Positions 9,471-31,049 of a stretch of 45,826 bases of DNA are shown in pieces. Source of the DNA: a bacterium (GTDB lineage Bacteria > Patescibacteriota > Microgenomatia > Levybacterales > UBA12049); NCBI GenBank assembly GCA_021777565.1, contig JAJYDJ010000001.1, forward strand, positions 314,856-360,681, given 5' to 3'. The position numbers and the translations under genes were made by a program. Position 1 is the stretch's first letter; every line of letters starts with the position of its first letter. Under the pieces are notes generated by a model that saw only the letters and a program-made list of their open reading frames with translations, searched no databases and had not been told where the DNA came from.

Positions 9471-9812
9471 ATGCAGACTTATTTTTATTCTCACATCGTC
9501 AGCATTGAACCGATCAAGGCGCGCCTTGATGAGCTTGAACTCTCTGATACTGAAAAAGAAGAGCTGCTCACGCTTTCTGAAGAAAATTTGCACTATGTTG
9601 TGATGGATGTCGTGCTCTCAGAACTTACTGATGAGGACAAGAAAACACTTTTTATTCATTTAGCCTCAGATAAACATGATGATGTGTGGGCACTTTTGCA
9701 TGACAAGACAGATAAAATTGAAGAAAAAATCATGAAGGCAGCAGAAGAATTTATCAATACGCTCCATAAGGATGTCCACGAAGCAAAAAAAATTACCAAG
9801 AAGAAAAAATAG
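9471..9812 (+). CDS. Acidic helical hypothetical protein
   Basis: ORF immediately after the 9469 stop; charged helical composition. Confidence 0.75.
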   Translation: MQTYFYSHIVSIEPIKARLDELELSDTEKEELLTLSEENLHYVVMDVVLSELTDEDKKTLFIHLASDKHDDVWALLHDKTDKIEEKIMKAAEEFINTLHKDVHEAKKITKKKK

Positions 9813-9813
9813 T

Positions 9814-13385: not shown

Positions 13386-13429
13386 TCCCCTTGCTTTTGT
13401 GTGATCTTCTTCTCTATGCTAATAAGAGG

Positions 13430-14206: not shown

Positions 14207-14208
14207 TT

Positions 14209-14844
14209 ATGACAACAGCACGAAAATTTATTGAAATTGATACGATTATCTTTCTTGTAGTAGCGGCAATCGCAGGTGTCTACTTTGCATACTTTTTTCA
14301 CCAGACACCATTTCACCTTATGAGTGGGGTACCCAGTCAGGAGCCTATGGTCTCGCCAACCAATCCACCTGCGCCTACTCCAGTGACCTCCTCACAAGTA
14401 TCTCCTGATGGTACAAAGAAAATTACGTTGCAAACACTGCAACAATCAGGAGTAAATGCCTACAGTGTGTCCATTGCCAATGCGGATGATTCCAACAGTT
14501 CTGTTGTGTATACTGCCACCGGCTCGGCAACTGAGCACTGGCAAGTACCATTTAACACCTGGTCCCCTGATAATAACTACTATTTCCTGGAAGACGTAAC
14601 ACCCAATGGTATTAACGCTTTGGTGTTTAAAGCCTCAGGCAAAACCTTTGCTAACGATCAACCATATCTCAATGTGACTGAGGAATTTAAAAATCGTGAA
14701 CCAAATTATAACTATACTGAGACCACTGGATGGGCATCAGAGACGCTTCTTATTGTGAACTCTACTAATAAAAGTGGCGATAAGCAGTCATTCTGGTTTG
14801 AAGTACCGAGTAAGGCAATTATTCCACTTGCCACCGATTTCTGA
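14209..14844 (+). CDS. Membrane-anchored extracellular hypothetical protein
   Basis: N-terminal TM, Pro/Thr-rich linker, beta-rich domain; 2 nt after the L,D-transpeptidase stop. Confidence 0.75.
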   Translation: MTTARKFIEIDTIIFLVVAAIAGVYFAYFFHQTPFHLMSGVPSQEPMVSPTNPPAPTPVTSSQVSPDGTKKITLQTLQQSGVNAYSVSIANADDSNSSVVYTATGSATEHWQVPFNTWSPDNNYYFLEDVTPNGINALVFKASGKTFANDQPYLNVTEEFKNREPNYNYTETTGWASETLLIVNSTNKSGDKQSFWFEVPSKAIIPLATDF

Positions 14845-14866
14845 TCTATTCTGATATAATACCTTC

Positions 14867-15580
14867 ATGGATGTACGACTTGATAGTTATTTAGCACACC
14901 TAGGCGTGGCTTCTCGGCGTGGGATAGCAGACGCACTGAAGCGAAAAACAGTGACCGTGAATGATGTGCGTATCCTTGAACCAGGGGTGCGTGTTGATCC
15001 TGCGAAAGACAGGATACTGGTTGACGGTCGAGTGCTCAGTAAGCCAAAGTTTTTATACTACCTGGTAAATAAGCCGGTTGGTATCGTCTCAACGGTTATG
15101 GATGAAAAGCATCGTAAAAGTGTTCGTTCTTTGGTGCCAAAACCAGGACGCATCTATCCAGTAGGGCGTCTGGATAAAGATACCTCAGGGCTTATTATTT
15201 TAACGAACGATGGTGAATTAACGAATAAATTGACGCATCCACGATTTCACGTAGCCAAAACCTATAGACTCACGATCAAAGGACTTCTTTTTGCAGAAAA
15301 ACTTGAAAAACTGCGTACTGGAGTGAGACTTGATGATGGGATGACACTGCCTGCTCGAGTCGTGGTGAAAAAAGATACCAAGGCAGAGACCATCGCAGAT
15401 ATGACTATTACTGAGGGACGTAATCGTCAGATTAGGCGCATGTGTGAAATGCTGCGTATTCCCCTTATCTCTTTGCAGCGGGTACAATTTGGTCCTATCG
15501 CACTTGATAAACTTCCTGAAGGGAAATATCGCGAGTTATCACGAAAAGAAGTAGAAGCATTATATGCTTCTGTTAAATAA
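14867..15580 (+). CDS. rRNA pseudouridine synthase, RsuA/RluB/RluE/RluF family
   Basis: N-terminal S4 domain; GRLDKDTSGLIILTNDG; EGRNRQIRRM. Confidence 0.93.
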   Translation: MDVRLDSYLAHLGVASRRGIADALKRKTVTVNDVRILEPGVRVDPAKDRILVDGRVLSKPKFLYYLVNKPVGIVSTVMDEKHRKSVRSLVPKPGRIYPVGRLDKDTSGLIILTNDGELTNKLTHPRFHVAKTYRLTIKGLLFAEKLEKLRTGVRLDDGMTLPARVVVKKDTKAETIADMTITEGRNRQIRRMCEMLRIPLISLQRVQFGPIALDKLPEGKYRELSRKEVEALYASVK

Positions 15581-16288: not shown

Positions 16289-16840
16289 ATGCCAGAAGCG
16301 AAAGATATCTGTCCAAAATGTGGTGCACCACTTGGTGAGATCACAGTTACATCCACAGGGAAAAAACTCCAACGCTGCTCCAAAGGCTCATGGGACAGTG
16401 CTACCAAACAAAATATTGGCTGTGACTATGTGAAGTGGCTTGAAGTAGAACCTCAAGAACTTGATGAGAAATGTCCAAAATGTGGCTCTCCATTGATGAT
16501 GGTCGTGACACGATTTGGCAAAAAAATGAAAAAATGTTCAACTGGTGGCTGGGATAGTGCAACCAAAAAAGCAACAGGATGTGACTATGTAGAGTGGATT
16601 AATGGGAGTAGTGAACCTCTTGATGAAGAGTGCCCTGAATGTGGGTCAAAATTAGTTTTGTTCACGACCAATGCTGGAAAGAAAATGAAGAAATGTTCAA
16701 CTGCTGGATGGGATAGCAAGAAACGCCAGGCAACAGGATGCACCTATATTCAGTGGCTTAAACCTGGTGAATATCCAGTGAAAGATAATGTTGATAATGC
16801 TGGTGAAGAATTCCTCCCTCCAGAACCAGACGAAGAGTAA
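16289..16840 (+). CDS. Stand-alone protein of three topoisomerase-type C4 zinc-ribbon repeats
   Basis: Three CPxCG...GKK...CS...WD...GCxYxxW units with 162 and 159 nt periods. Confidence 0.8.
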   Translation: MPEAKDICPKCGAPLGEITVTSTGKKLQRCSKGSWDSATKQNIGCDYVKWLEVEPQELDEKCPKCGSPLMMVVTRFGKKMKKCSTGGWDSATKKATGCDYVEWINGSSEPLDEECPECGSKLVLFTTNAGKKMKKCSTAGWDSKKRQATGCTYIQWLKPGEYPVKDNVDNAGEEFLPPEPDEE

Positions 16841-17181: not shown

Positions 17182-17631
17182 CTATGATTTGTGTTGAGGT
17201 AAATAGGTCGTAATAAGCCAATTTTGAAATTCTTCAGAATACAGCGTAATGGATGGAATTTTTTCAATATCCAGCCACAGCGGCTCATAAAAATTCTCTG
17301 AATCTCTTGCCATTTTTTCTTTTTCTGGTCCCTCCCCAATCGATGGAATACCACTCACATATCTGCACAAATAGGTTAATTTTTTGGCACGATCAGGTGA
17401 GTTAAGTTCAAAAATTTTTTCTTCAACCGTGACAGTGACACTCGTCTCTTCTAAGACTTCACGTTTTACTCCTTCCTCAGGCGTCTCATCATCTTCCCAT
17501 CCTCCACCAGGGAGTACGTAGTATTCCTTACCTTTTTTGATGCGATGTACCAGAAGTATCTTATCATCATGCAGGACAAGCCCTTCGACTCGAATACCGT
17601 GTGGAAAATCGGGTGAAATATGTCGTGGCAT
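17182..17631 (-). CDS. NUDIX hydrolase
   Basis: PGGGWEDDETPEEGVKREVLEET; start refined to ATG 17631. Confidence 0.88.
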   Translation of the reverse strand: MPRHISPDFPHGIRVEGLVLHDDKILLVHRIKKGKEYYVLPGGGWEDDETPEEGVKREVLEETSVTVTVEEKIFELNSPDRAKKLTYLCRYVSGIPSIGEGPEKEKMARDSENFYEPLWLDIEKIPSITLYSEEFQNWLITTYLPQHKS

Positions 17632-17679
17632 AGGTAAAGTATAACACATATAGGCCGTCAATATGGTATAATCGCAGAC

Positions 17680-18483
17680 ATGCTCTCCCCTGATGCAACC
17701 TATGATAGTACTGGCGTGTCTATACACCTGCCTGTGACTGAGCCTCGCATGCCGGATGATGGTCGAGTCATCCCTGCTCTTCGTCGTGGGGACCTGAGTG
17801 ATGTCCAGATTGATCCCAGTAATATAGAGCATGTGAAACAAGGACAACCTATCCCGGGGCTTAAAGAAATTACTCGTATGGACATTACTGATGGGACGCC
17901 ATGTTATATTATGGGTCAGCACAGTAGTGTGCTATTCGCCCTGGCAGAAGCACTCCATGAAGGAAAAATCCAAGTGCCAGTAACTTTAATTAATGCAGAT
18001 ATGCACGGAGACTACACTCCCCCAAGACGTCCTACATATTTGATTGATCCTGCGACGTTTCGTGACCTGACGCGTATGGCTGTTTTGAATCGTCAGACTG
18101 ATATTGATGAGTTCATCTATGTAGCGCAACTGATGCAAATGGTTGATACCGTTGTTTGGATAGACTCTGAGTTTGCGGCAGATAATCAACCAACTGAATT
18201 GGATCTTTCACACGGCCCTGGGCCATTACTCCAGAGTAGATGGCAAGGAGAGCATGTACAGCGCATCCTACGTGGTGAAATACCAAGAGAACGGGTAGCC
18301 GTAACGATCGATATTGATTACTTTACCAATATGACAGATGCTGATGAGATTGAGCGTGAAATGGTTAAGATGCGTGAGCTGATTGCTCATGCAGGCGTAG
18401 TCATGATTGCGACCAGTCCAGGATATATCGATCAACAGAGAGCAATAGAGTTAACAAAACAACTTCTATCACCTCTGGTGTAA
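17680..18483 (+). CDS. UPF0489-like protein (arginase/deacetylase fold)
   Basis: QHSSVL, LINADMHGD, TIDIDYF and IATSPGY match my recollection of the family motifs. Confidence 0.6.
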   Translation: MLSPDATYDSTGVSIHLPVTEPRMPDDGRVIPALRRGDLSDVQIDPSNIEHVKQGQPIPGLKEITRMDITDGTPCYIMGQHSSVLFALAEALHEGKIQVPVTLINADMHGDYTPPRRPTYLIDPATFRDLTRMAVLNRQTDIDEFIYVAQLMQMVDTVVWIDSEFAADNQPTELDLSHGPGPLLQSRWQGEHVQRILRGEIPRERVAVTIDIDYFTNMTDADEIEREMVKMRELIAHAGVVMIATSPGYIDQQRAIELTKQLLSPLV

Positions 18484-18486
18484 GGG

Positions 18487-19155
18487 TTATTTACAGCTTC
18501 GAAAGCCTCCCGTGAAGAAATCCAAAAATGCTGAAAGTGTCCATCCATTATGTCGAGCCAAAAAGAGATGGCCACACGCGTTGGTTTCTTTGTTATCAGG
18601 TCCAGTAATAGCGATAACTTTCTCATAGTCCATGATCGCGGCAGGTCTGTCGATTTGGTAGTAATAGTTATGAATATCTCCCCTGTTCATGAGTGCTTGT
18701 ACATAATTTGGGTTTAACGTCAGCGCTTTATTGAGATCAGTCAAAGCTGATTGAAAGTTTCTCAGACGCATATAGGTATAGGCACGATTGTTATACGCTT
18801 GTGGAAAACTAGGATTTAACATGATGGCCTTGGTGTAGTCTTTCACTGCCTGCTGACAATCCCCACGATCATAGTCATAGTTCCCTTGTGCAAAATAATC
18901 TTCAAATGTTGTTAGCTGGACTGGAGGCTGGGATGATGCGATGTGAAATGATGAACATTGGATGTCAGGTTGGCTCATGGAACTATAGACACCGAGACCA
19001 ATGACCAAAAAGAGTGCAGACAGCACGAATCCACTCATGACAAGTGATTTTCTTGTGGCATGCTTGAGCTTCATATGGTTAAGTACGAAATACGCGACAA
19101 AGTAGAAAAGGATGGAGACGACAATGGCAACCAGAACAATAAACAGAAGCTTCAT
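18487..19155 (-). CDS. Membrane-anchored TPR protein
   Basis: Two N-terminal TM helices then three TPRs (AYNNRAYTY...ALTDLNKALTLNP). Confidence 0.88.
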   Translation of the reverse strand: MKLLFIVLVAIVVSILFYFVAYFVLNHMKLKHATRKSLVMSGFVLSALFLVIGLGVYSSMSQPDIQCSSFHIASSQPPVQLTTFEDYFAQGNYDYDRGDCQQAVKDYTKAIMLNPSFPQAYNNRAYTYMRLRNFQSALTDLNKALTLNPNYVQALMNRGDIHNYYYQIDRPAAIMDYEKVIAITGPDNKETNACGHLFLARHNGWTLSAFLDFFTGGFRSCK

Positions 19156-19191: not shown

Positions 19192-20808
19192 CTATGGTGT
19201 TGGGGTATCAAGTGCAGACGTCGATGCACTTGCGTCAGGAAAAAGTGCATTAATCTCTTGTTGTGTTAATGGAGTCCATGGAGAGGCATCAGGGTTGGCA
19301 CTTGCTGCTTCAGGACTTTGGCCTTGATTCCACCACTTTGCCTGATAAGGAACTCCATTAAGAAGTACACGTTGTCCAGCTTGGTAGATATCAGTTCCAG
19401 ACCAGTCGGGATATGTCCCCGCTGGAAGTGTTGGCTGTGGAATTGGCTTTTCTCCAGGGAGGACGGGTCCTAAAAGCTGCCAAGGAGTTTGCCATGATTG
19501 CAGTACTGGATTATCTGGCATTTCTCCCCTTGTCCACCATTTCGCTTGATATACATTATGATGCCAGACTACTTTTGTCCCAGTAAGATATGATGATGTT
19601 TCGTCCCAAATTTCGTAGGGACTTGTATTGGGATCATCTGGAGTTTGTATACTCGCATCTGCATCCTGTGTCGTAACAACTGCCGCGTTTTGTTGTAATG
19701 TCCCGGTAAAGTCTTTGCTCAGTGTCTGTGCAAATGCATATTTCCCTTGTTTTACACCACTGCAAGAATCAGATACGATTTTTGTATCAACATAATTATC
19801 TCCACAAGGAATATCTCTGTTGGCAGACCACATAGACATTCTTCCCAGTCCTTGTTGTGTCGCAAATGTGTTGAGTGTGGTTGCATCATCAAGGGTAACT
19901 ATTTCATCACTCGTATCATTTTGCCCGATCATTACGGTGGTACCAATTTTTCTCCAGAGTGTTGCACTATTGAGGTTGATTCCTGCTTGCTTATAGAGTA
20001 TACCCAGTTGACGATGTGTTTCGTTTAATGCTTTCTCTGATGCTTGCTCCATGGTGTCATTCTTATCTTTACTATTTCCATAATCCATTGTCATGACATT
20101 GATACCGGAAACATCTACTTTTGCGGCGAGCATGGCAGCAATTGCATTTGTCCCTTCAACACTCAACCCTTGTGGACTGACAGGGAGTGTTAGCCAAACA
20201 GCGAGATTTTGTTTGGCAGCTCTTTTTTGTTGTTGAAGGAGTGCGATGGCTGTCGCGCGTCTTTTCATAGCATCTGTGTCGTTGAGCCCATCGCCCTCAA
20301 GATCCAGATCAATGGTATCGACAGTGTATCTATCTACCACTTCCTGATAGGCAGCCTTTAGTGTGTCAATGTTTTTACATGTGAGCGCCAATTCTTGATT
20401 TCTTTGTCCACCAAAAGAAACCGTAATATTACCCCCTTCTTGTCTCAGTCTGGCTATTCGTCTGTCCATGTCCAGTCCTCCACGTGCCTGATCCAGCGTG
20501 TAGGATGCTCCCCATGTCGGCATGCATCCATCATTAGGAGAGGCAACAATAAATGAGAGAACGAATGTTTTTGGAGTGCCAGGTGCAAGTTGCTCAAACG
20601 CATATCGTGGAGTAGCTGTGACATCAACATATGATGCAAACCATGGCTTATGTCCTGCCGTAATGCGACTATCTTGCCAATGTAAAAATCCCAAATAGAT
20701 TCCGCCAGCAATGCCAATGAGGATAAGAATTGCAAGAAGTACTCTCCAAGGAGAAAGTCTTCTTTGTGGAGTATCTACCACAACTGATTGTGTTTTCTTT
20801 TTCGTCAT
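19192..20808 (-). CDS. GH18 chitinase-like protein with an N-terminal TM anchor and two C-terminal chitin-binding (CBM5/12) modules
   Basis: Catalytic DTIDLDLE (DxxDxDxE), SFGG, INVMTMDYG, SMWSANRD; two W...Y..G..V...YQAKWW modules. ATG 20808 overlaps the upstream TGA. Confidence 0.9.
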   Translation of the reverse strand: MTKKKTQSVVVDTPQRRLSPWRVLLAILILIGIAGGIYLGFLHWQDSRITAGHKPWFASYVDVTATPRYAFEQLAPGTPKTFVLSFIVASPNDGCMPTWGASYTLDQARGGLDMDRRIARLRQEGGNITVSFGGQRNQELALTCKNIDTLKAAYQEVVDRYTVDTIDLDLEGDGLNDTDAMKRRATAIALLQQQKRAAKQNLAVWLTLPVSPQGLSVEGTNAIAAMLAAKVDVSGINVMTMDYGNSKDKNDTMEQASEKALNETHRQLGILYKQAGINLNSATLWRKIGTTVMIGQNDTSDEIVTLDDATTLNTFATQQGLGRMSMWSANRDIPCGDNYVDTKIVSDSCSGVKQGKYAFAQTLSKDFTGTLQQNAAVVTTQDADASIQTPDDPNTSPYEIWDETSSYLTGTKVVWHHNVYQAKWWTRGEMPDNPVLQSWQTPWQLLGPVLPGEKPIPQPTLPAGTYPDWSGTDIYQAGQRVLLNGVPYQAKWWNQGQSPEAASANPDASPWTPLTQQEINALFPDASASTSALDTPTP

Positions 20809-23102
20809 GACACACTTACCTTTCCTGTTGTACCTATGAGATCTCCAAGTGATTGATGTGGGACTGTTCCATTCTCTTCTCCATGATAGAGAATAACACG
20901 CCAATCTCTTACTTGTTTCCCTGCCTTGGCTGGTGTTACCGCTTTTGTCTTTCCATCTACATACAACCAATCAGTAAGACCAAACCATGTGTCTTGCAAA
21001 AGTTCCCAAAGCCCGATGTAGGAGATGATTGCCCAAGTAGCAAAAAATGCATTCAGTCCGGCAAATGCTGCATTTGCCCAGTTCTGACTTTCGACATTTC
21101 TCCATATGGTAAAGAGTGAGAATGCTACAATCGCAACAGGGGTAAGAACGTAAATAATACCTGCTGAGGTACGATCATTGATTTTTGGCGTACGAGCAAA
21201 TGGGATTTTCTTTCCGGTCAATGATTGTTCAATTGATTTCACTACACCAGCAAGATTGACAAAAAGAAGTATGAGGTTGAACCCGTAAATACGAAATACG
21301 TCGCTATAACGGTAGCCATTATATTTCAAATCTGATGCCATAGAAAGAAAATATGGCATAGCGGCAAGAAGAACCAACGGACTCAACAATCGCCCATCGT
21401 AGGGGTATGCAAGGATGAAAAGCCCACCAAAAGAAGACCAGGCAATGGAGGCCATATAATTCACACGAAGTAGGACTTCTGTTCGAGAAATTAACTCATT
21501 ACGGTTCTTGCGTGCGCGAATAGTTGCCCATAATTTAGGAAGAATAAGAAGTCCACCATTTGCCCAACGTCGACGTTGCACTACCAATGCCCCAAAATCT
21601 GGTGGTGTTGCACTATAACTGAGTCTTTCTGGATAGTTGATAAGAGTCCACCCGTGCAGTGCCAAGTCGATACTGGACTCAGTGTCTTCAATAACAGTTC
21701 TGTCCTGAATATATCGTTTTATTTCAAAACCTCCTATATATTCTTTTTCAACAATGTCCTCCAGCGCGAGTTTGCGAATAACGGCATTTGCTCCTACCCA
21801 GAAGGTGGCACCATAGTGAGTAAACCCTTGGTGCAGAAGATGTTGGATATCGGTGGTTGCTCCAGACAAGCGCTCAATACGAGAATAGGCACCTCTAAAT
21901 GATGAATAAGGTGTTTGAGTAACAGCAACTTTTTCATTGCCAGGTTGTTGAAGGAAATACACCAGACGAAGACAATAATCTCGTAAAAGGATTGAATCGG
22001 CATCAAGAGTTAAAAGGAATTCACTATCAGGAATGATAACATTCCCTTGCTGTCTTTTTTCTACAGGCATCAAAAGAAGTCCTTCAGGGGTTTTCTCTTC
22101 CCGATACGTTCCTCCCATAAGTCCAATATATGAATTAAGATTCATCGCTTTGTTGGCTTCATGTGAAAGCGATGCATATTTTTTTCTCTCAAATGTTGCA
22201 ACTTTCGCTTGGAATATCCATACCAATCGACGATATAGTTGGTGAATTCTCTCTGCTGCAAGTGGAGCGCCTTCTTTGATAGACATCTCGAGTGCTTCAC
22301 TCACTAGTGAAAGGTCCTTTGCCAATTCTCCAAATACCTGTTCAGTAAAGAAAACATCAACGTGGTCGTGGACTTCTTCTTTCTTTGCTGCTTTTACAAG
22401 CCAATTTGCAGCCCAGGCATATTGTGCTGAGAGATCTTTTACTACTTCTGTCGGGATAGCTTCTTTACTGGCATATCTTTTCTCAAATTGTGTGAGCGCT
22501 TTGTATACGTGTCTGTATGGTGTAGAGAGAAACTTTTCAATGTCTTTCCCAAGGGCTCTTGTCTGGTTGAGTCGAGCAAGAACATTTGGATTAGTAGGAT
22601 TTGGGTTATCATCAATGAGAAGAACGACGCGCATTGAAGGATACTCTTGCAGTGCTGCTGATAAAAGAGTTTTGCGAATGACACTTGTCTCCTCACTGTA
22701 GGATGGTACAAGTACGGTGATTGATGGTTGATGCTTCGCAAAGTATTTATCTAGCAGTGTTCGTGGGACCCGTACATGTTTACTAAATCTCTGTAATGCC
22801 CCTTGGCGGGCAATCAGATACATGAGGGCCGAGAAGGTAAGGAATGTAACTACCAAGGAATAACTAAATGCTTCAACAGTAAAGTTATAATTTTTGGGAC
22901 CCTCAAGGAGTTGTTTGAAAATAATTGAACTAATATAAAGTGCCCAGAATATGACCGTTGCAACAATAGCAACACGACTGAGAGCAATTTTGAGCGTTGA
23001 TGGTTTCTCATGCATCATGGGGAGTGGTGTCATACTTCTCTCAGTCCCCCATTGACGCTTGCGTGTTTCTTTTATTTTCTTATGTGTTTTAAATAACTTC
23101 AT
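20805..23102 (-). CDS. Processive membrane GT2 polysaccharide synthase (cellulose/chitin synthase-like)
   Basis: VLVPSYSE, LIDD, NKAMNLN, TLDADS, QTPY, IEDT, QRRRW; TM helices at both ends; SD AGGAGA before ATG 23102. Confidence 0.9.
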   Translation of the reverse strand: MKLFKTHKKIKETRKRQWGTERSMTPLPMMHEKPSTLKIALSRVAIVATVIFWALYISSIIFKQLLEGPKNYNFTVEAFSYSLVVTFLTFSALMYLIARQGALQRFSKHVRVPRTLLDKYFAKHQPSITVLVPSYSEETSVIRKTLLSAALQEYPSMRVVLLIDDNPNPTNPNVLARLNQTRALGKDIEKFLSTPYRHVYKALTQFEKRYASKEAIPTEVVKDLSAQYAWAANWLVKAAKKEEVHDHVDVFFTEQVFGELAKDLSLVSEALEMSIKEGAPLAAERIHQLYRRLVWIFQAKVATFERKKYASLSHEANKAMNLNSYIGLMGGTYREEKTPEGLLLMPVEKRQQGNVIIPDSEFLLTLDADSILLRDYCLRLVYFLQQPGNEKVAVTQTPYSSFRGAYSRIERLSGATTDIQHLLHQGFTHYGATFWVGANAVIRKLALEDIVEKEYIGGFEIKRYIQDRTVIEDTESSIDLALHGWTLINYPERLSYSATPPDFGALVVQRRRWANGGLLILPKLWATIRARKNRNELISRTEVLLRVNYMASIAWSSFGGLFILAYPYDGRLLSPLVLLAAMPYFLSMASDLKYNGYRYSDVFRIYGFNLILLFVNLAGVVKSIEQSLTGKKIPFARTPKINDRTSAGIIYVLTPVAIVAFSLFTIWRNVESQNWANAAFAGLNAFFATWAIISYIGLWELLQDTWFGLTDWLYVDGKTKAVTPAKAGKQVRDWRVILYHGEENGTVPHQSLGDLIGTTGKVSVS

Positions 23103-23259: not shown

Positions 23260-23907
23260 CTAGAAAAGAGTTTTTATATGTTCTGCTAATTGGAGCCCGA
23301 GGACGTGATTATCTCGTTCGCTCAGATGAATGCCATCTATTTCTGAGGCGGCAATGAGGCTAGATGTGTCCAAGAAATAGAGGCCGTTTTTCTCGGCATA
23401 GGACTTAAAAAATCCTGGAAGCTCTCGTATCTTCTCTTCTGAGCCTTTGAAGATGTTTTGAAAAGCCTTATAGGAATCTTCTTCTTTAATTGGAGGTGGT
23501 GCCATGATAAGTATTTTTGGCATCGGGAAATTTAGGTGTTCACACCACCATTTAAGTTTCTCTTGGTAGCTATCAAGTCCAGAGACAATTTCTTCAGGAG
23601 ATTTTTGTGAACCACTGTTGGCATCATTGGTCCCGAGGAAAATAATCAGTAAATCAAATGGAAGATGACTTCCTATGATAGGGCCAAACTGCTCTGCCCC
23701 ATTGCGGTAGGGAAAGAACGCATTCTCCCCAACAAGCATTCTCCCTCGAAGGCCTTCTTCAATGACTTCATAACTTTCCCCTAACTCTTGCTGGAGGACG
23801 CCAGTAAATCGCTTGGTATTGGGGTAGCGAAGACCACCAGGGATTTTGCCGAAGGTATATGAATCACCAAAGATGAGGATGCGTTTTGGATTTTCTGTAG
23901 TATTCAT
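23260..23907 (-). CDS. SGNH/GDSL hydrolase
   Basis: Block I FGDSYT, block II EEGLRGR, block III FLGTND, block V DGIH. Confidence 0.92.
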   Translation of the reverse strand: MNTTENPKRILIFGDSYTFGKIPGGLRYPNTKRFTGVLQQELGESYEVIEEGLRGRMLVGENAFFPYRNGAEQFGPIIGSHLPFDLLIIFLGTNDANSGSQKSPEEIVSGLDSYQEKLKWWCEHLNFPMPKILIMAPPPIKEEDSYKAFQNIFKGSEEKIRELPGFFKSYAEKNGLYFLDTSSLIAASEIDGIHLSERDNHVLGLQLAEHIKTLF

Positions 23908-23976
23908 ATGAAGTGCTGCTGAGTCTTTTGCAAGGATCATAGACCTAGATTGCTAACGCAACGAGACTCAGCGATT

Positions 23977-24014
23977 CTCATGCAAATACTCGCATTCTCG
24001 AGTTTTCCCATGAG
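23977..24014 (-). terminator. Hairpin that would be the tRNA-Gln 3' trailer/terminator in the empty site
   Basis: CTCATG-caaat-ACTCG-cattct-CGAGT-tttcc-CATGAG abuts the left crossover core. Confidence 0.45.
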
Positions 24015-24040
24015 CTGCGGGCAATGGACTACATTAGAAC
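24014..24040. repeat. Left junction: GCTGC core plus P' arm
   Basis: GCTGC (24014-24018) then GGGCAATGGACTACATTAGAAC; mirrors the arm at 39258-39280. Confidence 0.7.
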
Positions 24041-24114
24041 CTATTATACACAACTTTCGCTCTCACGGTCATATTGATTAACTATTATAAGCAGCAAACA
24101 GTTATATTGATAAT

Positions 24115-24888
24115 ATGGCGCGTGTTGTAAATATTTACAGGTATAAAACTACTAATATTGGCGATCGTTACTCATCGCCATCTTTATATTTTGATTGGCT
24201 ACGTGATGCCGATACAACTGATATCTGGACAGAAAACATAGGTAAATCAATTAATGACATTCGTAAGAAAGTTCTTATTTTGGGTGGTGGAGGTTTAATA
24301 GCAAATCATGACTTTGAAAAGTCAGTTGCTTGGCTAAGTAATGCGCCTTTTGTAAAGAAAGTAATTTGGGGAGCAGGGCACAATACCCATGGTACAGATA
24401 GGATAGAGAAAGTTAGTAGATATATTAACAAGTTTGATCTTGTAGGAATCCGAGATATAGGTACTAAATATACATGGGTACCTTGCGTAAGCTGTATGCA
24501 CAAATTATTCGATATTGAGTATGCCACCAAACATGAGATTGTGGTATATGAGCACAGAAGCTTCCCTTTAGACATAAATATTTACCCTAAGCACAATAAT
24601 CGTTCAGATAACTTGGAGGAAGTACTTGCCTTCTTGGGTTCTGGAGAAACTATTATTACAAATAGCTATCATGGTGCATATTGGGCAACTTTACTTAGGA
24701 GAAAAGTTATTCTCATAGATCCGTTCTCTTCAAAATTTAGTAGAATGAATTACTCTCCGATTATTTCAACTAGTCATGAGTATAAAAAATATCTTAAAGA
24801 TACCAGAATATATCCAAATGCATTAGAAGAATGTAGAAAAATCAATATTGATTTCGCAGAGAGTGTAAAAAGGATGGTTTTTTCTTAA
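24115..24888 (+). CDS. Polysaccharide pyruvyl transferase-like protein
   Basis: ILGGGGLI, IWGAG, VGIRD, VPCVS, ITNSYHGAYWATLL. Confidence 0.7.
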   Translation: MARVVNIYRYKTTNIGDRYSSPSLYFDWLRDADTTDIWTENIGKSINDIRKKVLILGGGGLIANHDFEKSVAWLSNAPFVKKVIWGAGHNTHGTDRIEKVSRYINKFDLVGIRDIGTKYTWVPCVSCMHKLFDIEYATKHEIVVYEHRSFPLDINIYPKHNNRSDNLEEVLAFLGSGETIITNSYHGAYWATLLRRKVILIDPFSSKFSRMNYSPIISTSHEYKKYLKDTRIYPNALEECRKINIDFAESVKRMVFS

Positions 24889-24904
24889 CATCCTTGTAGA
24901 AGAG

Positions 24905-25426
24905 TTATCTATGCAACTGCTTCCATAGATCAGTAGCATCTTGAAACATTGCTTTTCCTAAATCTCCCCATGGAACAAACTCATGAACGTTTGCACTAGG
25001 AACAAAATCTCTTTCCCACGTTTTTCCATTATCAGGATCTGGACGTGAAGGTGATAATTCATCGAGATCACAAATCATTCGCGCTTGGTAAAAGATATCT
25101 CCTTCGACAGTATTTGGATTATTTGGGTATGTTACTTTTTGTACCCCAAGTATACGAATGTTCTTAACAGTAATTGTTACCTCCTCATCAAGTTCACGTA
25201 TAAGTGTTTCTTCAATTGATTCTACTCCCTCTGGTTTCCCCCCAGGTATTTGCCATTTACCAGTATTGACAGATCGGCAGATTAGTATCTCACCTTTATT
25301 GTTAAAGCATATTCCATATACTTGAGTAATCGGTAGAAATGTATCTTTTTGATCTGTGCGTATCCATTCAAGATTAATAGTAGTGCCTTCATATACATAT
25401 GAGGATTGGGGATTTTTAGTATCCAT
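24905..25426 (-). CDS. NUDIX hydrolase (paralog of 33801-34340)
   Basis: IPGGKPEGVESIEETLIRELDEEV. Confidence 0.9.
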   Translation of the reverse strand: MDTKNPQSSYVYEGTTINLEWIRTDQKDTFLPITQVYGICFNNKGEILICRSVNTGKWQIPGGKPEGVESIEETLIRELDEEVTITVKNIRILGVQKVTYPNNPNTVEGDIFYQARMICDLDELSPSRPDPDNGKTWERDFVPSANVHEFVPWGDLGKAMFQDATDLWKQLHR

Positions 25427-25486
25427 ATATCAATAATAACAGAAATACATATTGTATTCAATAAACTGGTACGATAGAATGTCCAC

Positions 25487-26446
25487 ATGCAAACAGCATT
25501 GATATGTGGGGCAAGTGGTTTTATTGGCACTCACCTTGTTAGACGACTTAAAAATGAAGGCTACTGGGTAAGAGGAGTGGATATTAAAGCACCTGAGTTT
25601 AGTGACTCAACAGCAAATGAGTTTTTTCTTCTCGATTTAAGAAAGGAGCAAGATTGTATAAAAGCATTAACTTTAGCTGACGGATTCGATGAAGTATATC
25701 AATTGGCAGCCGACATGGGAGGCATGGGATATATTGAATCTGCGGAGTGTGAGATTATGCATAATAATGTATTAATCAATACATATATGATTGATCAAGC
25801 AATTAAATTGAAAGCAAAGAAGTATTTTTATTCTTCATCAGCTTGCGTATATAGGGATATGAAAATTGGCGAAGATGCATTAACTGAAGAAGAAGCGTAT
25901 CCTGCACTTCCTGATAATGAATATGGTTGGGAGAAATTATATTCAGAGAGGGTTGTTAGTGCGTATGGTCGCAAATATGGAATCACTGTGAAAATATCTA
26001 GATTTCAAAACTGCTATGGTCCAGAAGGCGCATGGATTGGTGGAAGAGAAAAGGCTCCAGCAGCAATTTGTAGGAAAATAGCAGAAGCCCAAGATGGTGG
26101 TACAATTGAAGTGTGGGGCGATGGGACTGCTGTTAGATCCTTTATGTATATAGATGACTTACTTGATGGCATTCGCTTATTAATGAATTCGAATGTCTCA
26201 GAGCCTGTACATATTGGCAGCCCTGAATATGTCTCAGTTAATCAATTGGTAGAGGTAGTTTCTATGATAGCTAAAAAAAGAATAAATATAAAGTATGTTA
26301 GTGGTCCTCGAGGTGCAGAATCACGTAATATTAGTAATGAAAAAATATATGCTCTTGGTTGGAAGCCAAAGTTCTCTTTAGAAGATGGGATTAGATTAAT
26401 GTATCCATGGGTGGAAGAACAGGTATTACATTGTAAATATACATGA
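25487..26446 (+). CDS. NAD-dependent epimerase, GDP-mannose 3',5'-epimerase-like extended SDR
   Basis: GASGFIG, QLAADMGGMG, SSSACVY, YGWEK (YxxxK), GGREKAPAAICRK, WGDG. Confidence 0.88.
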   Translation: MQTALICGASGFIGTHLVRRLKNEGYWVRGVDIKAPEFSDSTANEFFLLDLRKEQDCIKALTLADGFDEVYQLAADMGGMGYIESAECEIMHNNVLINTYMIDQAIKLKAKKYFYSSSACVYRDMKIGEDALTEEEAYPALPDNEYGWEKLYSERVVSAYGRKYGITVKISRFQNCYGPEGAWIGGREKAPAAICRKIAEAQDGGTIEVWGDGTAVRSFMYIDDLLDGIRLLMNSNVSEPVHIGSPEYVSVNQLVEVVSMIAKKRINIKYVSGPRGAESRNISNEKIYALGWKPKFSLEDGIRLMYPWVEEQVLHCKYT

Positions 26447-27102
26447 AATTATTCATATTTGATTTTGATGGACCGATTAATAATCTAACAGAATCCAAAA
26501 AAGCTGCTTTACAGAAGATATCGCAGAAATTAAAGCTTGAAATGCCTCCTTTAACACAGTGGCATTTTATTAATTACATAGATCAGATCTATGAAGCGGA
26601 GAAAGAGTTCGATTATCAAAGGTTAGTTTCAAAAGTGTTAAGAAAGTTAGTACGCGAAAATCTTCTGCAAATCTCCGATACGACTATAGAAGACTTTGCA
26701 AGAATATTTAGTGAATTGCTATCGAAAAATATGATTATTCACCCAAACCTTGAGCAAATAATTGCTGGATATAAAAAGAATGGGGATGTTCAATGTTGTA
26801 TATACACAAATCAAAAACGTGAATATATTATCAATCTTCTCAAGGAGAACCATATTGACGAAACAATTTTTGAAGCAATCTATGGTAGAGAAATGTTTGA
26901 TGAAGTTAAACCTTCCATGAAAAATCTGATGCAAATTGCAAACGACTTTAGAGCTGAATATCAAGATGTGACTGTATTTGGAGATCGAGTCGTTCTCGAC
27001 TTAGAACCAGCAGCATATCTGGGTATGCGTACGGTATTGGTCAATAGATTTGTCTCAACCGCCGTTTTTTCTTTAGAAGACTTTACTGAAGATTCTCAAT
27101 AA
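26443..27102 (+). CDS. HAD-family phosphatase
   Basis: FDFDG (motif I), YTN, KP, VFGDRVVLD. Confidence 0.88.
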   Translation: MKLFIFDFDGPINNLTESKKAALQKISQKLKLEMPPLTQWHFINYIDQIYEAEKEFDYQRLVSKVLRKLVRENLLQISDTTIEDFARIFSELLSKNMIIHPNLEQIIAGYKKNGDVQCCIYTNQKREYIINLLKENHIDETIFEAIYGREMFDEVKPSMKNLMQIANDFRAEYQDVTVFGDRVVLDLEPAAYLGMRTVLVNRFVSTAVFSLEDFTEDSQ

Positions 27103-27952
27103 ATTGAGAGATTTGTGTTAAAGAACCCTGAATGTAATAACAAGGAATAGTCTCAGCAATAGATATAGCGAAATTCAATCTTGCTTGTGCAATTGACTGC
27201 GTGTCAAGGGATCTTAGTGGAGTGGTCATGTTGAAAATAGATCCGTTGATTAACCGTATATCCTTTGTAAGTTCTTCATATAGCATCCATTTCGTTTGAT
27301 CTAAAGAATATAACTTCGCAACTAAATTGTCAGCGTCATTAGTAACAACAGGTATGATAATATATGATAGCTTCGGAGGTGTTGATACGTTAACAATTTC
27401 TATCTCACTTTGAACATTCATATAATCGGATAATCTCTCTTTAGTTTTACTCTCGATATAAATCTTTTTCGTTTGTCCAGAGAAACCAATAGTAGCCGAG
27501 TTAAGAGAAGTCTTCTCATCTGAATATAAAGTGTACCCGTTTATTTTACATAGAAAAAGAGCTGTAGATGTTTTCCCCAGTCCTGTGAGATTTCCCATAA
27601 AGAGTATGCCCTTCCCATTTTTATGTATTGCCGACGAGTGAATAGTGTATATCCCAATCTCTTGACGATTTCTTTCTAAAATAGATTCACAGAGTACAAT
27701 TATGTCTGAGCTAGTATAGTCATTGTTAAAAACACCTTGGATATATGCTTTTGATTTATTGAGTCTATATTTTTTCAACTCTAAATTAACAACATCGATC
27801 TTACTCGTAGGATAGTTATCTAACTTTAAATCAGGTATAAACTTATACAACAAAGAGTTGTTAAGGATAGCATCCCAAATTAACTGGTGATCGATACCCT
27901 GCGTAATAATCTCTATCCCAAAGGTTTGTGAACCAATTGTTTTATAATTCAT
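27083..27952 (-). CDS. HPr-kinase/PEPCK-like P-loop kinase
   Basis: IHSSAI, GNLTGLGKTS (Walker A-like), LYSDE (Walker B-like). Confidence 0.6.
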   Translation of the reverse strand: MNYKTIGSQTFGIEIITQGIDHQLIWDAILNNSLLYKFIPDLKLDNYPTSKIDVVNLELKKYRLNKSKAYIQGVFNNDYTSSDIIVLCESILERNRQEIGIYTIHSSAIHKNGKGILFMGNLTGLGKTSTALFLCKINGYTLYSDEKTSLNSATIGFSGQTKKIYIESKTKERLSDYMNVQSEIEIVNVSTPPKLSYIIIPVVTNDADNLVAKLYSLDQTKWMLYEELTKDIRLINGSIFNMTTPLRSLDTQSIAQARLNFAISIAETIPCYYIQGSLTQISQFIENLQ

Positions 27953-29082
27953 TATTTAACGTAACTCTCATAGAGCTGAACTAGCATTTCTACATTTTTT
28001 CTCATATCCCAACTTTGTTTTACTTGAGTGAATGCATTATTAACTAATGTAGATCTAAGGTTGGTATCTTGAAGTAGTTTTTGAATCATTGCTGCTAGTT
28101 TATCGGGTTTATTTGGTTTCGCTAGTAAGGCTGTATGTTCATGTCTTGCAAACTCAATCATACCGCAACAATTACTTGTAACTATTGCGCAGCCAGATGC
28201 AGCGGCTTCCATCATAGTCGTTAAGACACCCTCGTAGTTCGATGATGGGCAAAGAAATACTTTAGATCTGTGATAGTAGTCTTGTAATACTGATTCATCA
28301 ACATTATGGTAGAGTTCCACTTTATCGGTTAAATCAAGATCTTTTATTCTGTTTTTTAGATTATCTAATTCAGGTCCATCACCGACCATTACAAGTTTAT
28401 TGAATGCAATTCCCATCTTTAGTAATATTGTTAACGCATCTAATATATTATAGATTCCTTTATATGCAAACAGTCTCCCAACATATAATAAGTCTATGTC
28501 TCGTATATCATTAGAAAATGTAAACTCATTTAAATTGATACCATTATAATTTATCTCAATATCTTTGTTCTCTAGTTTTGGGTATAAACTCATCCAGCCT
28601 TCTTTTATTGACCCAGAAACAGCGATAAATCTATTTGGACGGTCAAGAAATATATCATCAAATGACCTATATTCAACTGGTACACCATGTAGGTGAAGTA
28701 CGTTTGTAAAGCTTTCTGGGATAAAGATACTATCAGAAAGTAAATGCGTTATTACTAAGTCATAACTGTCCTTGTTTTCAAAATAGAAAGACTGAGCTTT
28801 TTGCCCAAAGTAAATAGCTTCTTTGTCCCATCGTGTCCAATCCATAGTGGCTTCTTCTGTATATATTTTTCTCTGTGATGGACTAAGAAGTATTTCATGT
28901 ACTTTAATTTGACGGTTTTGGTGACGGAATTGATTATATAGCGTAGAATATGCTATCGGTTTTGCAGTAAGAATAGTCACATCATGCCCAAGTTGGCTCA
29001 GTATTGCTGCTTGTTGTAAGGGTACAATCTCTCCGCCCCCGAGATAATATGATAATCGTGGATGATGAATTAGTAATTTCAT
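27952..29082 (-). CDS. GT4 (GT-B) glycosyltransferase
   Basis: GGGEI, YVGRLFAYKG, EGVLTTMMEAAASG (EX7E). Confidence 0.92.
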   Translation of the reverse strand: MKLLIHHPRLSYYLGGGEIVPLQQAAILSQLGHDVTILTAKPIAYSTLYNQFRHQNRQIKVHEILLSPSQRKIYTEEATMDWTRWDKEAIYFGQKAQSFYFENKDSYDLVITHLLSDSIFIPESFTNVLHLHGVPVEYRSFDDIFLDRPNRFIAVSGSIKEGWMSLYPKLENKDIEINYNGINLNEFTFSNDIRDIDLLYVGRLFAYKGIYNILDALTILLKMGIAFNKLVMVGDGPELDNLKNRIKDLDLTDKVELYHNVDESVLQDYYHRSKVFLCPSSNYEGVLTTMMEAAASGCAIVTSNCCGMIEFARHEHTALLAKPNKPDKLAAMIQKLLQDTNLRSTLVNNAFTQVKQSWDMRKNVEMLVQLYESYVK

Positions 29083-29083
29083 T

Positions 29084-30972: not shown

Positions 30973-31049
30973 ATGAGCGAGCCCTATAGGTTTGACACAT
31001 AATTAAAACTCAAGTAAGATTAGCTGACTATATCATATTTGGATAATTT

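Follow-up and report, generated by a model that had tools for sequence, protein, structure and literature searches.

A mobile two-gene cassette pairing a BcsA-like membrane synthase with an anchored GH18 chitinase, a candidate system for a chitin-like bacterial polymer

In known synthase-dependent polysaccharide systems, cutting of the polymer is done by hydrolases such as BcsZ, PgaB and PelA. Catalysis by hydrolases of family GH18 depends on a 2-acetamido group at subsite -1; in fungi, synthases and GH18 chitinases act together in wall remodelling, while some plant GH18 enzymes, e.g. hevamine, cut GlcNAc-MurNAc bonds. Chitin synthases (CHS) are recognised by the signature motifs QRRRW, EDR and (S/T)WG(T)R/K. 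In Streptomyces, the identity of the β-1,4 glycan made by CslA is debated and chitin-active auxiliary proteins are involved; CslZ and LpmP were proposed to open a path for this glycan. To our knowledge, a chitin-like surface polymer is not yet known from any bacterium. The CHS transferred to Proteobacteria are of division 1 and occur in Gammaproteobacteria and Alphaproteobacteria, where their neighbours encode DUF1501, DUF1800 and an epimerase, and no GH18 (Gonçalves et al., 2016, PMC5122149).

The gene pair analysed here is located on the minus strand of a stretch of 45,826 nucleotides of patescibacterial DNA (the window, from contig JAJYDJ010000001.1) and encodes a GT2 synthase and a GH18 protein (Table 1). 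No publication on such a pair was found, and it is uncharacterised. The overlap of the GT2 stop codon with the GH18 start codon, noticed in the sequence-only reading, was found as described and is consistent with translational coupling. A Shine-Dalgarno-like run (GGAAAGG) lies 11-17 nt upstream of the GH18 ATG, and in most orthologous loci the junction consists of a 1-4 nt overlap or a small gap. A small TM-TPR protein is encoded 36 nt downstream of the cassette (18487-19155); no β-barrel was detected in it, and it is missing from 80/80 related loci.

Table 1. Positions of the two genes and of their features in the window
Feature	Position	Strand	Basis
Processive membrane GT2 synthase, 765 aa	20805..23102	-	ORF, PF13632, AF2 model, Foldseek
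GT2, first DD motif, D164-D165	22608..22613	-	Translation, ortholog alignment
GT2, helical insert between DD and NKAMNLN, residues 172-297	22212..22589	-	AF2 secondary structure
GT2, DHVD, invariant, inside the helical insert	22356-22367	-	
GT2, NKAMNLN	22134..22154	-	Translation, ortholog alignment
GT2, DAD (DxD), residues 367-369	21996..22004	-	4hg6/5ej1 alignment, orthologs, translation
GT2, FWVGAN, counterpart of BcsA FFCGS	21786..21803	-	4hg6/5ej1 alignment; invariant among orthologs
GT2, ED472-473 of VIEDTES, catalytic-base motif, aligned with BcsA TED	21684..21689	-	
GT2, QRRRW, residues 509-513, acceptor-binding motif, first interface helix	21564..21578	-	
GT2, PFARTPK, at the BcsA gating-loop position (FxVTxK)	21183..21203	-	Conservation, AF2 loop
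GT2, DWRVILYHG, conserved cytosolic C-terminal motif	20880..20906	-	Ortholog alignment, translation
ATGA stop/start overlap GT2/GH18	20805..20808	-	GT2 TGA 20807-20805, GH18 ATG 20808-20806
Predicted membrane-anchored GH18 chitinase, 538 aa, two C-terminal CBM5/12	19192..20808	-	ORF, Pfam, PDB matches
GH18, RRLSPWR, conserved cytoplasmic motif directly before the TM anchor	20743..20763	-	Ortholog alignment
GH18, single TM anchor, residues 23-43, N-terminus inside	20680..20742	-	Hydropathy (hydrophobic segment 17-45)
GH18, catalytic TIM barrel, residues 56-362	19723..20643	-	9buf match 2e-49
GH18, SFGG, residues 131-134	20407-20418	-	Translation
GH18, DTIDLDLE, residues 164-171	20296-20319	-	Translation
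GH18, CBM5/12 module 1, AKWWT	19489..19623	-	PF02839; conserved in orthologs
GH18, CBM5/12 module 2, AKWWN	19267..19419	-	PF02839, best stretch 469-511

The GT2 protein was assigned to Pfam Glyco_trans_2_3 (PF13632, 9e-33), and hydrophobic helices flank its catalytic domain on either side. A layout is predicted with two N-terminal TM helices, a cytosolic GT-A domain, interface helices, about four C-terminal TM helices and a cytosolic tail; the AF2 model reached a pLDDT of 91.2 and a pTM of 0.89. The first DD motif, which coordinates UDP in processive GT2 enzymes, contains a residue (D164) invariant across 115 family sequences, and DD164-165, DAD367-369, ED472-473 and QRRRW509-513 are all invariant in 18/18 orthologs. 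The NKAMNLN motif is presumably aligned with HAKAGN of BcsA. In the model, PFARTPK is part of the loop that links helix 613-629 to helix 649-671, and its residues F635, R637, T638, P639 and K640 are at least 90% conserved in the 115 sequences. Judged by its fold and catalytic motifs together, GT2 is a predicted processive synthase-translocase of the BcsA/CesA/HAS class, integrated in the membrane. The insert is modelled as four long helices (H172-210, H218-241, H247-276 and H283-297, pLDDT >90) and gave weak antiparallel coiled-coil matches in a profile search against the PDB; residue H247 is at least 90% conserved among the 115 family members. In the tail, W734, L738, Y739 and G741 of the DWRVILYHG region are invariant in 18/18 orthologs. 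The four-helix insert and the tail motifs, both conserved, are candidates for regulation or oligomerisation. Thus the full processive motif set with flanking TM helices, and the long helical insert after the first DD, both claimed from the letters alone, were recovered by translation, ortholog alignment and modelling. The claimed lack of a PilZ domain also stood, as none was matched by the Pfam search of the window GT2, nor was PilZ, GGDEF or EAL matched in the GT2 or its neighbour genes.

Compared with solved structures, the synthase is BcsA/CesA-like in sequence and fold, and not CHS-like. Foldseek ranked BcsA at the top for the GT2 model (2e-13), followed by plant CesA, then HAS (E about 1e-8 to 1e-9), with Chs last (Chs1/Chs2 weak, TMq about 0.26); the highest TM-scores were obtained with plant CesA (TMq 0.48-0.51). 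The profile search of GT2 against the PDB retrieved only BcsA (5e-17). The core carries the BcsA-like motifs NKAMNLN, QTPYSSF, FWVGAN, IED and the PFARTPK gating loop, with QRRRW as acceptor motif. Assignment to individual families was rejected for BcsA proper (TIGR03030, 77.9 bits vs a cut-off of 699.1; NF008558, 40 vs 992), for Pfam chitin synthase (PF03142, Chitin_synth_2, 19.4 vs 27 bits, N-terminal part only) and for NodC (TIGR04242, 23.9 vs 550). The PNAG synthase profile TIGR03937 gave a weak match (2.7e-14, 53 bits vs a cut-off of 422). Among the CHS signatures, QRRRW is present, IEDT replaces EDR, and FARTPK replaces SWG at the gating-loop position. Alignments and profiles therefore agree with the earlier description of mixed motifs, cellulose-synthase-like for IEDT and chitin-synthase-like for QRRRW, from which the product cannot be read.

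The partner protein scored 35.8 bits with Pfam Glyco_hydro_18 (PF00704, cut-off 29.6), and its best solved relatives are chitinases, namely 9buf ('Exochitinase 1', 2e-49) and 2dsk of P. furiosus (3e-22). The catalytic residues D167, D169 and E171 (DxDxE) are retained in 76/77 GH18 orthologs, and GH18 is therefore considered to be under selection as a hydrolase. A catalytically intact enzyme of the chitinase type is predicted. PF02839 (CBM_5_12) matched two stretches with 45.6 bits (threshold 26.2); the AKWW motifs are conserved, and module 2 matches the PDB chitin-binding domains 4txg, 6z40 and 2d49. The topology is fixed by the K/R-rich N-terminus and by a natural fusion protein (P0127), in which the GT2 C-terminus is joined to the GH18 N-terminal end, so that GH18 is predicted to be anchored N-terminally on the external side of the membrane. 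Four conserved cysteines further suggest that the catalytic domain is extracytoplasmic. A TM-anchored GH18 with intact DxxDxDxE and two chitin-binding modules, as read initially, is hence what hydropathy, the DTIDLDLE motif and both CBM_5_12 matches indicate.

Residues L18, S19 and R22 of the RRLSPWR motif are invariant in 21 GH18 orthologs, a divergently oriented one included, and the synthase may dock at this motif. AF2 modelling of a GT2-GH18 chimera, for which the natural fusion P0127 was the only paired MSA row, did not dock the GH18 anchor onto GT2 with confidence (pTM 0.68, anchor and linker pLDDT <65). A physical GT2-GH18 complex is not supported by this modelling test.

Conservation of the pairing, proposed earlier as a check, was found whichever of the two genes served as query; it extends across phyla, survives inversion and includes a fusion. 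With GT2 as query, GH18 was located directly downstream in 79/80 genome loci, the sole exception being a contig end; with GH18 as query, GT2 was adjacent upstream in 69/69 metagenome loci, all those that leave space on that side. Such counts far exceed chance. The pairing was also retained in divergent orientation (L086, L160, L162, L163, L166 and an Arthrobacter plasmid), and P0127 joins GT2, TM anchor, GH18 and CBMs in a single ORF. Pairwise identities of GT2 and GH18 are correlated (r = 0.94), and the main groupings are common to both NJ trees. The reciprocal pairing, kept through inversion and as fusion, gives good support to a functional coupling between synthase and hydrolase. In the related loci no third conserved gene was found beside the cassette, no conserved deacetylase, UDP-sugar dehydrogenase or epimerase adjoined it, and no LCP ligase, sortase substrate or similar attachment or export component was among the conserved genes; an LCP gene adjoins it in only one locus. 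GT2 orthologs are 63-70% identical in the 80 genome loci. Patescibacteria, Ktedonobacteria and Microbacteriaceae carry versions of the cassette that are about 65% identical at the protein level, and further copies are located on plasmids of Lactococcus and Arthrobacter. It is a horizontally mobile, self-contained cassette. On some dairy Lactococcus plasmids GT2 was removed by an IS element while GH18 persists; therefore, carriage of the chitinase alone is at least possible. Some GT2 relatives, with about 40% identity, lack a GH18, so the broader family may make more than one product. In one GT2 relative (P0211, 39% identical), the synthase carries two fused CE4 domains (polysaccharide deacetylase). 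EAL fusions or a nearby GGDEF gene in relatives are indirect hints of an exopolymer or biofilm logic, and the only ones for the putative role in host attachment or biofilm suggested in the sequence-only reading.

The sequence-only reading had proposed a chitin-like polymer system. Its synthase-hydrolase coupling is carried by the conserved pairing, while the chitin-like product is what we infer from the way GH18 enzymes cut, from both CBM5/12 modules and from the CE4 fusion of a relative. The pair is best read, with reasonable probability, as a synthase-dependent system by which a β-1,4-GlcNAc (chitin-like) polymer is made and trimmed, because GH18 needs a 2-acetamido sugar and GT2 relatives are fused to CE4 or EAL. 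GT2 would take up UDP-GlcNAc from the cytosol, polymerise the chain and extrude it through its own TM channel. Beside the exit, GH18 would bind the nascent chain via CBM5/12 and cut it by substrate-assisted catalysis, which could serve chain release, length setting or removal of stalled polymer. With a Patescibacterium as probable host, one may speculate that the polymer is a surface or attachment layer. If true, the synthase-dependent system would be new.

Against this reading stands the proximity, in sequence and fold, of GT2 to glucose-polymerising cellulose synthases, the donor sugar being unreadable from the sequence. No known family is nearer to GT2 than BcsA and CesA, cellulose is a ligand of some CBM5 modules, and each partner occurs without the other, as in the distant GT2 relatives and on some Lactococcus plasmids. 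GT2 could then make cellulose or another non-acetamido β-glucan, with GH18 being a co-transcribed nutritional or antifungal chitinase or a non-catalytic, BcsB-like membrane partner. This is very improbable: the two-way pairing (79/80 and 69/69), the inversions, the one-ORF fusion and the correlation of r = 0.94 are difficult to account for unless the two proteins share a substrate, the hosts have tiny, streamlined genomes, and GH18, whose catalytic residues are retained in 76/77 orthologs, is selected as a hydrolase of a family that cannot cut glucans. The obligate GH18 partner argues against use of UDP-glucose by GT2 and against a β-1,4-glucan as its product. A GlcNAc-containing product other than plain chitin is considered unlikely, but has some merit. 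It could be a heteropolymer from one bifunctional GT2, e.g. GlcNAc alternating with Glc or GlcA as in hyaluronan synthase and cut by GH18 only after GlcNAc, or a partly de-N-acetylated chain. Single-domain GT2 enzymes which add two different sugars are established, HAS are clear structural neighbours of GT2 (E about 1e-8 to 1e-9), the active-site motifs mix BcsA-like and CHS-like elements, and the CE4 fusions suggest that deacetylation occurs at least in part of the family. However, a homopolymer is the best fit to the paired CBM5/12 modules and to a catalytic domain whose closest relatives act on crystalline chitin, and the lack of a conserved deacetylase, UDP-sugar dehydrogenase or epimerase beside the cassette speaks against both variants.

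The evidence for coupling (79/80, 69/69, fusion) applies equally to a cassette in which the extruded chain is cut at once into short soluble oligomers, to be released as a signal or as a metabolite that is shared or aimed at a host. The name of the closest solved GH18, an exochitinase, would fit, as would the conserved genes, which include no LCP ligase or sortase substrate; an LCP gene is adjacent in a single locus. Such chito-oligosaccharide production is nevertheless improbable, since an oligomer producer like NodC could do with less than a full TM channel, gating loop and CBMs for insoluble chitin, and synthase systems that make polymers routinely include a hydrolase. Alternatively, GH18 could act on GlcNAc-MurNAc bonds of the own cell wall and open a path for the GT2 polymer. 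It is anchored in the membrane beside the synthase, all host lineages have peptidoglycan, and lysozyme-type activity occurs in some GH18 enzymes; this is yet extremely unlikely, as the closest solved relatives are chitinases and CBM5/12 modules are binders of chitin or cellulose for which no peptidoglycan binding is known.

Compared with BcsA-BcsB-BcsZ, the cassette has a similar processive membrane GT2 with D, DxD, (T/I)ED, QxxRW, interface helices and gating loop, and a hydrolase co-encoded with the synthase, the match of GH18 to the polymer being inferred. In contrast to Bcs, it has no PilZ, BcsB, BcsC or other Bcs genes, GT2 has two N-terminal TM helices instead of the four of BcsA and an insert of about 125 residues after DD, and the hydrolase is a predicted GH18 chitinase with CBM5/12 instead of a GH8 glucanase. 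An insertion is found at the same place in plant CesA (P-CR, between the first D motif and DxD); it is a two-helix coiled coil, whereas that of GT2 has four helices and no detectable sequence similarity to it, and a role of the GT2 insert in oligomerisation is only an idea from this comparison. In the PNAG systems PgaC-PgaD/PgaB and IcaA-IcaD/IcaB, a GT2 using UDP-GlcNAc is likewise paired with an extracytoplasmic polymer-processing enzyme, and the CE4 domains of the GT2 relative, not of the window GT2, recall the PgaB/IcaB-type deacetylase. PNAG, however, is β-1,6-linked and cut by GH153 or GH20, not by GH18, and the window cassette lacks a deacetylase and a small PgaD/IcaD-like partner.

With eukaryotic CHS and NodC the synthase has QRRRW in common, and the predicted product is β-1,4-GlcNAc as well, but the synthase is of a different GT2 lineage without the EDR or SWG motifs. 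By description, Streptomyces CslA-GlxA-CslZ(-LpmP) is also a PilZ-less BcsA-like GT2 with a hydrolase in a monoderm; its partners are a radical copper oxidase, a GH6 and an AA10 LPMO, in place of a GH18 with CBM5/12. The analogy to Bcs and Pga drawn initially holds for the synthase-hydrolase core and not for outer export, as the BcsC/PgaA kind of apparatus is absent. Unlike Bcs, Pga, Alg and Pel, the window GT2 has no c-di-GMP receptor of the PilZ, PgaD, Alg44 or PelD type on or beside it, and no TPR and β-barrel export component (BcsC, PgaA, AlgK/E, PelB/C); such an outer component is probably unneeded in the envelopes of the cassette hosts. Shared with all four systems are a membrane-embedded processive GT2 which, judged by its motifs and predicted TM channel, is of the type coupling polymerisation to translocation, and an extracytoplasmic glycoside hydrolase which adjoins the synthase (79/80 and 69/69 loci).

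The two genes of the cassette overlap in an ATGA, as the sequence-only reading had stated, where the stop codon of GT2 meets the start codon of GH18, and a GGAAAGG run is found 11–17 nt 5' of the GH18 start. In promoter and terminator scans, the number of sites did not exceed that in shuffled sequence. Translation of GT2 confirmed the full motif set claimed for it (DD164-165, DAD367-369, ED472-473 and QRRRW509-513), hydrophobic helices were found on either side of the catalytic domain where flanking TM helices had been described, and Pfam returned Glyco_trans_2_3 (9e-33) and no PilZ match, in agreement with the reported lack of this domain. The TM anchor, the intact catalytic motif and the two chitin-binding modules attributed to GH18 were all recovered: the protein has one hydrophobic segment, at its N-terminus, its GH18 domain passes the Pfam threshold and includes SFGG and DTIDLDLE, and two CBM5/12 modules are present. 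The solved structures nearest to GH18 are chitinases (9buf, 'Exochitinase 1', 2e-49; 2dsk from Pyrococcus furiosus, 3e-22).

Features of the window considered in the analysis (positions in nucleotides of the window)
Feature	Position	Strand	Length	Remark
GT2 synthase	20805-23102	minus	765 aa	ORF; ATG at 23102, stop at 20805
GH18 chitinase	19192-20808	minus	538 aa	ORF; ATG at 20808, stop at 19192
SGNH/GDSL hydrolase	23260-23940	minus		157 nt 5' of GT2
TM-anchored TPR protein	18487-19155	minus		36 nt past the GH18 stop
rluB, after two ORFs in (putative) scpA/scpB position	13391-15580			few kb from the cassette
Zinc-ribbon protein	16289-16840		183 aa	three tandem C4 units
NUDIX hydrolase gene	9772-10272			
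NUDIX hydrolase gene	17182-17700			
NUDIX hydrolase gene	24905-25426			
NUDIX hydrolase gene	33801-34349			
Low-GC block	24000-39350			rich in glycan genes
Large serine recombinase	37696-39339			ends the low-GC block
tRNA-Gln	39279-39350	minus		overlapped by the 3' end of the recombinase gene

The coupling of the two proteins had also been proposed from the sequence, and a synteny survey done in both directions upheld it in 79 of 80 genome loci and in all 69 testable metagenome loci. A scan with GT2 of one genome per species returned at least 560 relatives, from which the best 80 loci were taken. The GH18 catalytic domain was located directly 3' of GT2 in 79 of these, while the locus without GH18 stops within GT2; in most of them, start and stop share 1–4 nt or lie a few bases apart. 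In the reverse test, metagenome contigs were scanned with the GH18 alignment, and GT2 adjoined GH18 in 69 of the 80 loci returned, the other 11 having at most 460 bp of upstream contig, which is too short for GT2. The two genes are divergent instead of tandem in four metagenome loci, on an Arthrobacter plasmid and on an actinobacterial contig (where GT2 carries a C-terminal EAL domain); therefore, the association outlasts rearrangement. A metagenomic ORF of 1345 aa (P0127) displays GT2, TM anchor, GH18 and two CBM5/12 modules in one fused chain and is 46% identical to the GH18 of the window over the full GH18 length. This fusion fixes the topology, in that the C-terminus of GT2 and the N-terminus of GH18 share one side of the membrane, the cytosolic one. 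Pairwise identities of GT2 and GH18 correlate across 75 loci (r = 0.94), and the main groupings are common to the neighbour-joining trees of both proteins. About 140 sequences (L001-L166) are naturally paired, and the GT2 family as a whole counts 535 clusters at E<1e-30. Altogether, GT2 and GH18 stand as obligate partners, and their functional coupling is considered highly probable.

The system is a two-gene cassette. None of 14 neighbours in the window was conserved in a tblastn search against 80 related loci, all-against-all clustering of the locus ORFs revealed lineage-specific synteny only and no conserved extra gene, and the 165 Pfam families matched by 122 flanking ORFs included none that recurred. 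The SGNH/GDSL hydrolase and the TPR protein on either side of the cassette looked like accessory components; both are absent from the 80 related loci and, because of this lack of conservation, were placed outside the system. Membership of the cassette in the adjacent low-GC island was also rejected, as its GC content matches that of the surrounding genome (0.41-0.44 vs 0.34-0.36 in the island). The low-GC block (0.34-0.37) contains genes for a pyruvyl transferase, a NAD epimerase, a HAD protein, two GT1/GT4, three GT2, a NDK-like and a NUDIX protein; it has the look of a glycan-biosynthesis island that integrated at a tRNA gene, apart from the cassette. Four separate NUDIX hydrolase genes are present in 45 kb, and the zinc-ribbon protein is of the topoisomerase-I type without a topoisomerase domain. 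A phage origin of the cassette was rejected, as a search of 50,697 phage records gave no match.

An AlphaFold2 model of GT2 was built from 115 family members with good confidence (pLDDT 91.2, pTM 0.89). A pair of TM helices at the N-terminus is followed by the GT-A domain in the cytosol, by interface helices from QRRRW onwards, by more TM helices and by a tail in the cytosol, and the long helical insert noticed earlier appears in the model as four long helices (residues 172–297). The insert is kept across the whole GT2 family and contains an invariant DHVD, a candidate for reaching the active site or for a regulatory part. Motifs and model identify GT2 as a processive synthase-translocase, and GH18 is likewise read as a catalytically intact chitinase-type enzyme anchored at the outer face. 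Foldseek comparison of the GT2 model with the PDB placed bacterial BcsA on top (E = 2e-13), followed by plant CesA with the best TM-scores (0.48-0.51), then hyaluronan synthases and cyclic glucan synthase, and fungal and oomycete chitin synthases far down (TMq about 0.26). Using the GT2 family profile against solved structures, BcsA was the sole match (5e-17). Two further conserved motifs, RRLSxWR at the cytosolic flank of the GH18 anchor and DWRxVLYHG in the cytosolic tail of GT2, could be contacts between the two proteins. In a GT2-GH18 chimera modelled with AlphaFold2 and a block MSA (pTM 0.68), the GH18 anchor was not placed on GT2 with confidence, and confidence was low at the N-terminal motif, anchor and linker of GH18; a docked complex may exist all the same.

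Six relatives of GT2 with 39-50% identity (P0126, P0128, P0129, P0130, P0168 and P0211) are domain fusions, with EAL at the C-terminus in four of them and two CE4 polysaccharide deacetylase domains in one, P0211 (39% identity). One GT2 fusion contains a dimethylformamidase-like DMFA2_C domain, and the relative P0122 (1183 aa) has a 440-residue C-terminal extension rich in proline and glutamine. The four EAL fusions and one GGDEF neighbour agree with a role in exopolymer or biofilm formation in the lineages concerned; the window cassette has neither an EAL nor a GGDEF module. A second, small GT2 (426-486 aa, the size class of PgaC/NodC) was observed beside the cassette in a few loci (L043:12490-13947, L067:5013-6443 and L117:2932-4209), and two of these score on Pfam Chitin_synth_2.

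GH18 enzymes act by substrate-assisted catalysis and hence depend on a 2-acetamido sugar in subsite -1. The D-x-D-x-E residues are kept in 76 of 77 GH18 orthologs, variation in DxxDxDxE being limited to the first Asp as in the solved relative 9buf, and paired tryptophans are kept in both CBM5/12 modules. Together with the CE4-fused relative, these features make a β-1,4-GlcNAc chain the most economical product. With UDP-GlcNAc as donor, GT2 would build this chain and pass it out through its own channel, and the anchored GH18 would bind and cut it. Taken as a whole, such a GT2-GH18 system for chitin or a near-chitin β-1,4-GlcNAc polymer is the explanation that we favour with moderate confidence. 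A product containing GlcNAc is likely, and plain chitin is a serious candidate to which slightly less than even credence is given. Three results count against this explanation: GT2 was recognised as a chitin synthase by none of the tests run (Pfam, NCBIfam and Foldseek), GT2 relatives at about 40% identity exist without GH18, and the GH18 anchor did not dock with confidence in the chimera.

A heteropolymer containing GlcNAc, or a partly deacetylated chain, would be indistinguishable from chitin in silico, and a small share of the credence goes to it. Release of oligosaccharides by the pair, which would be a variant of the favoured mechanism, appears improbable. The BcsA-like core of GT2 would suit a glucan synthase accompanied by an unrelated chitinase; this is very improbable and at odds with the association found in both search directions, with the single-ORF fusion, with the co-variation and with the kept catalytic residues. 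The faintest chance is left to an opening of the cell wall by GH18.

Besides the genomes, the cassette is present on 13 mobilizable dairy plasmids of Lactococcus lactis or cremoris, with 54.6% (GT2) and 48% (GH18) identity to that of the window. The Lactococcus GH18 keeps DLDLE and both CBMs and lacks the four Cys conserved elsewhere. The plasmid cassette adjoins prtP and prtM and has IS6 elements on its flanks (for instance L167, NZ_CP094476.1). GT2 is absent from about 11 of 25 Lactococcus plasmids; in pCIS6 (L169, NC_019436.1), the one inspected, ISS1 occupies the place of GT2 and the chitinase alone is left. The Arthrobacter sp. NicSoilB8 plasmid pNicSoilB8 (L168) carries the divergent GH18/CBM and GT2 genes. 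Another GH18, shorter than the first, and a gene with a GGDEF domain are located less than 4 kb away, and transposases are also close.

The cassette was identified in many Patescibacteria (Saccharimonadales, Levyi-, Woese-, Collier-, Dojka- and Moranbacteria, WWE3), in Ktedonobacteria and in Microbacteriaceae (Leifsonia, Humibacter, Mycetocola, Conyzicola), in loci with a GC content of 0.30 to 0.72. Mean GT2 identity is 65-69% between these three groups and 65% within Patescibacteria. In both neighbour-joining trees, which as midpoint-rooted distance trees are indicative only, Ktedonobacteria form one clade inside the Saccharimonadales sequences, and Microbacteriaceae form one clade with Saccharimonadales and Ktedonobacteria, away from other Patescibacteria. 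This pattern points to a horizontal movement of the cassette as a unit. Actinobacteria are known hosts of Saccharibacteria, hence the pattern may reflect epibiont-host gene exchange. The window cassette groups in both trees with that of a Levyibacteriota MAG (70% identity), in which a FKBP gene 70% identical to that of the window is located about 5 kb 5' of GT2. A Patescibacterium is the probable host of the window cassette. Seven MAG contigs of 38-51% GC (L002, L004, L010, L026, L070, L073 and L080) are tagged 'uncultured Gammaproteobacteria', 'Bdellovibrionales' or 'Pseudomonadales'; their cassettes group among Patescibacteria, and the tags may be wrong. In Leifsonia (L032-L072), the cassette lies a few kb 3' of a conserved block of segregation/condensation genes, rluB, tyrA and der. 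The proximity of rluB both there and in the window may be a coincidence.

Polymeric chitin counts as a eukaryotic product, and from bacteria only the short backbones of Nod factors are known. Public databases annotate GT2 as 'glycosyltransferase family 2 protein' or 'cellulose synthase (UDP-forming)' and GH18 as 'chitinase' or 'carbohydrate-binding protein'. The bacterial chitin synthases described so far belong to a different family, the few and still putative CHS-type genes of proteobacteria (PMC5122149), and CPR surveys read GH18 as a capacity for chitin degradation (PMC5581439). Full-text literature searches found no paper linking this GT2 and GH18; an Actinoplanes EPS paper and the bacterial CHS paper (PMC5122149) deal with other genes.

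If the cassette makes chitin, chitin synthesis would have a second origin, in the cellulose-synthase lineage, and would be spread widely among bacteria of soil and freshwater, among them the Patescibacteria, which are poorly understood. The GH18 counts of CPR genomes would then need rereading, and an identity of about 65% across phyla would stand as a tangible example of genes exchanged by epibionts and host lineages. A broader proposal, which is speculative and rather unlikely in its entirety, sees a true bacterial chitin synthase in a GT2 lineage that derives from BcsA and has no relation to eukaryotic CHS; with its dedicated GH18 it would form a minimal chitin machine of two genes. This machine would have been passed among Saccharibacteria and other Patescibacteria, the actinobacterial lineages that host them (Microbacteriaceae), Ktedonobacteria and plasmids of Firmicutes, and the chitin layer would serve ultrasmall epibionts in attachment to the host or protection from it. 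As a corollary, the 'chitin-degrading' GH18 of CPR metagenome surveys would be largely biosynthetic. Direct testing by ordinary genetics and biochemistry is feasible thanks to the Lactococcus lactis plasmids, the cultivable Leifsonia and the natural GT2-minus variants.

The cassette is classed among the synthase-dependent polysaccharide systems, where both the lineage of its synthase and the chemistry of its partner are new; if chitin is made, a fifth chemistry would join such exopolysaccharide systems. Alignment and conservation gave GT2 a motif set of BcsA type, with NKAMNLN, QTPYSSF, FWVGAN and IED as counterparts of HAKAGN, QTPHFF, FFCGS and TED, respectively, and PFARTPK in the place of the FxVTxK gating loop. 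Despite these motifs, GT2 is not a BcsA: it scores 78 bits on TIGR03030 against a cut-off of 699 bits, has neither PilZ domain nor BcsB partner, and carries the 125-residue four-helix insert between the DD motif and NKAMNLN. This insert sits where plant CesA has its plant-conserved region, a likeness of position only. The role proposed for GH18 is the one played by BcsZ, PgaB and PelA in the known synthase-dependent systems.
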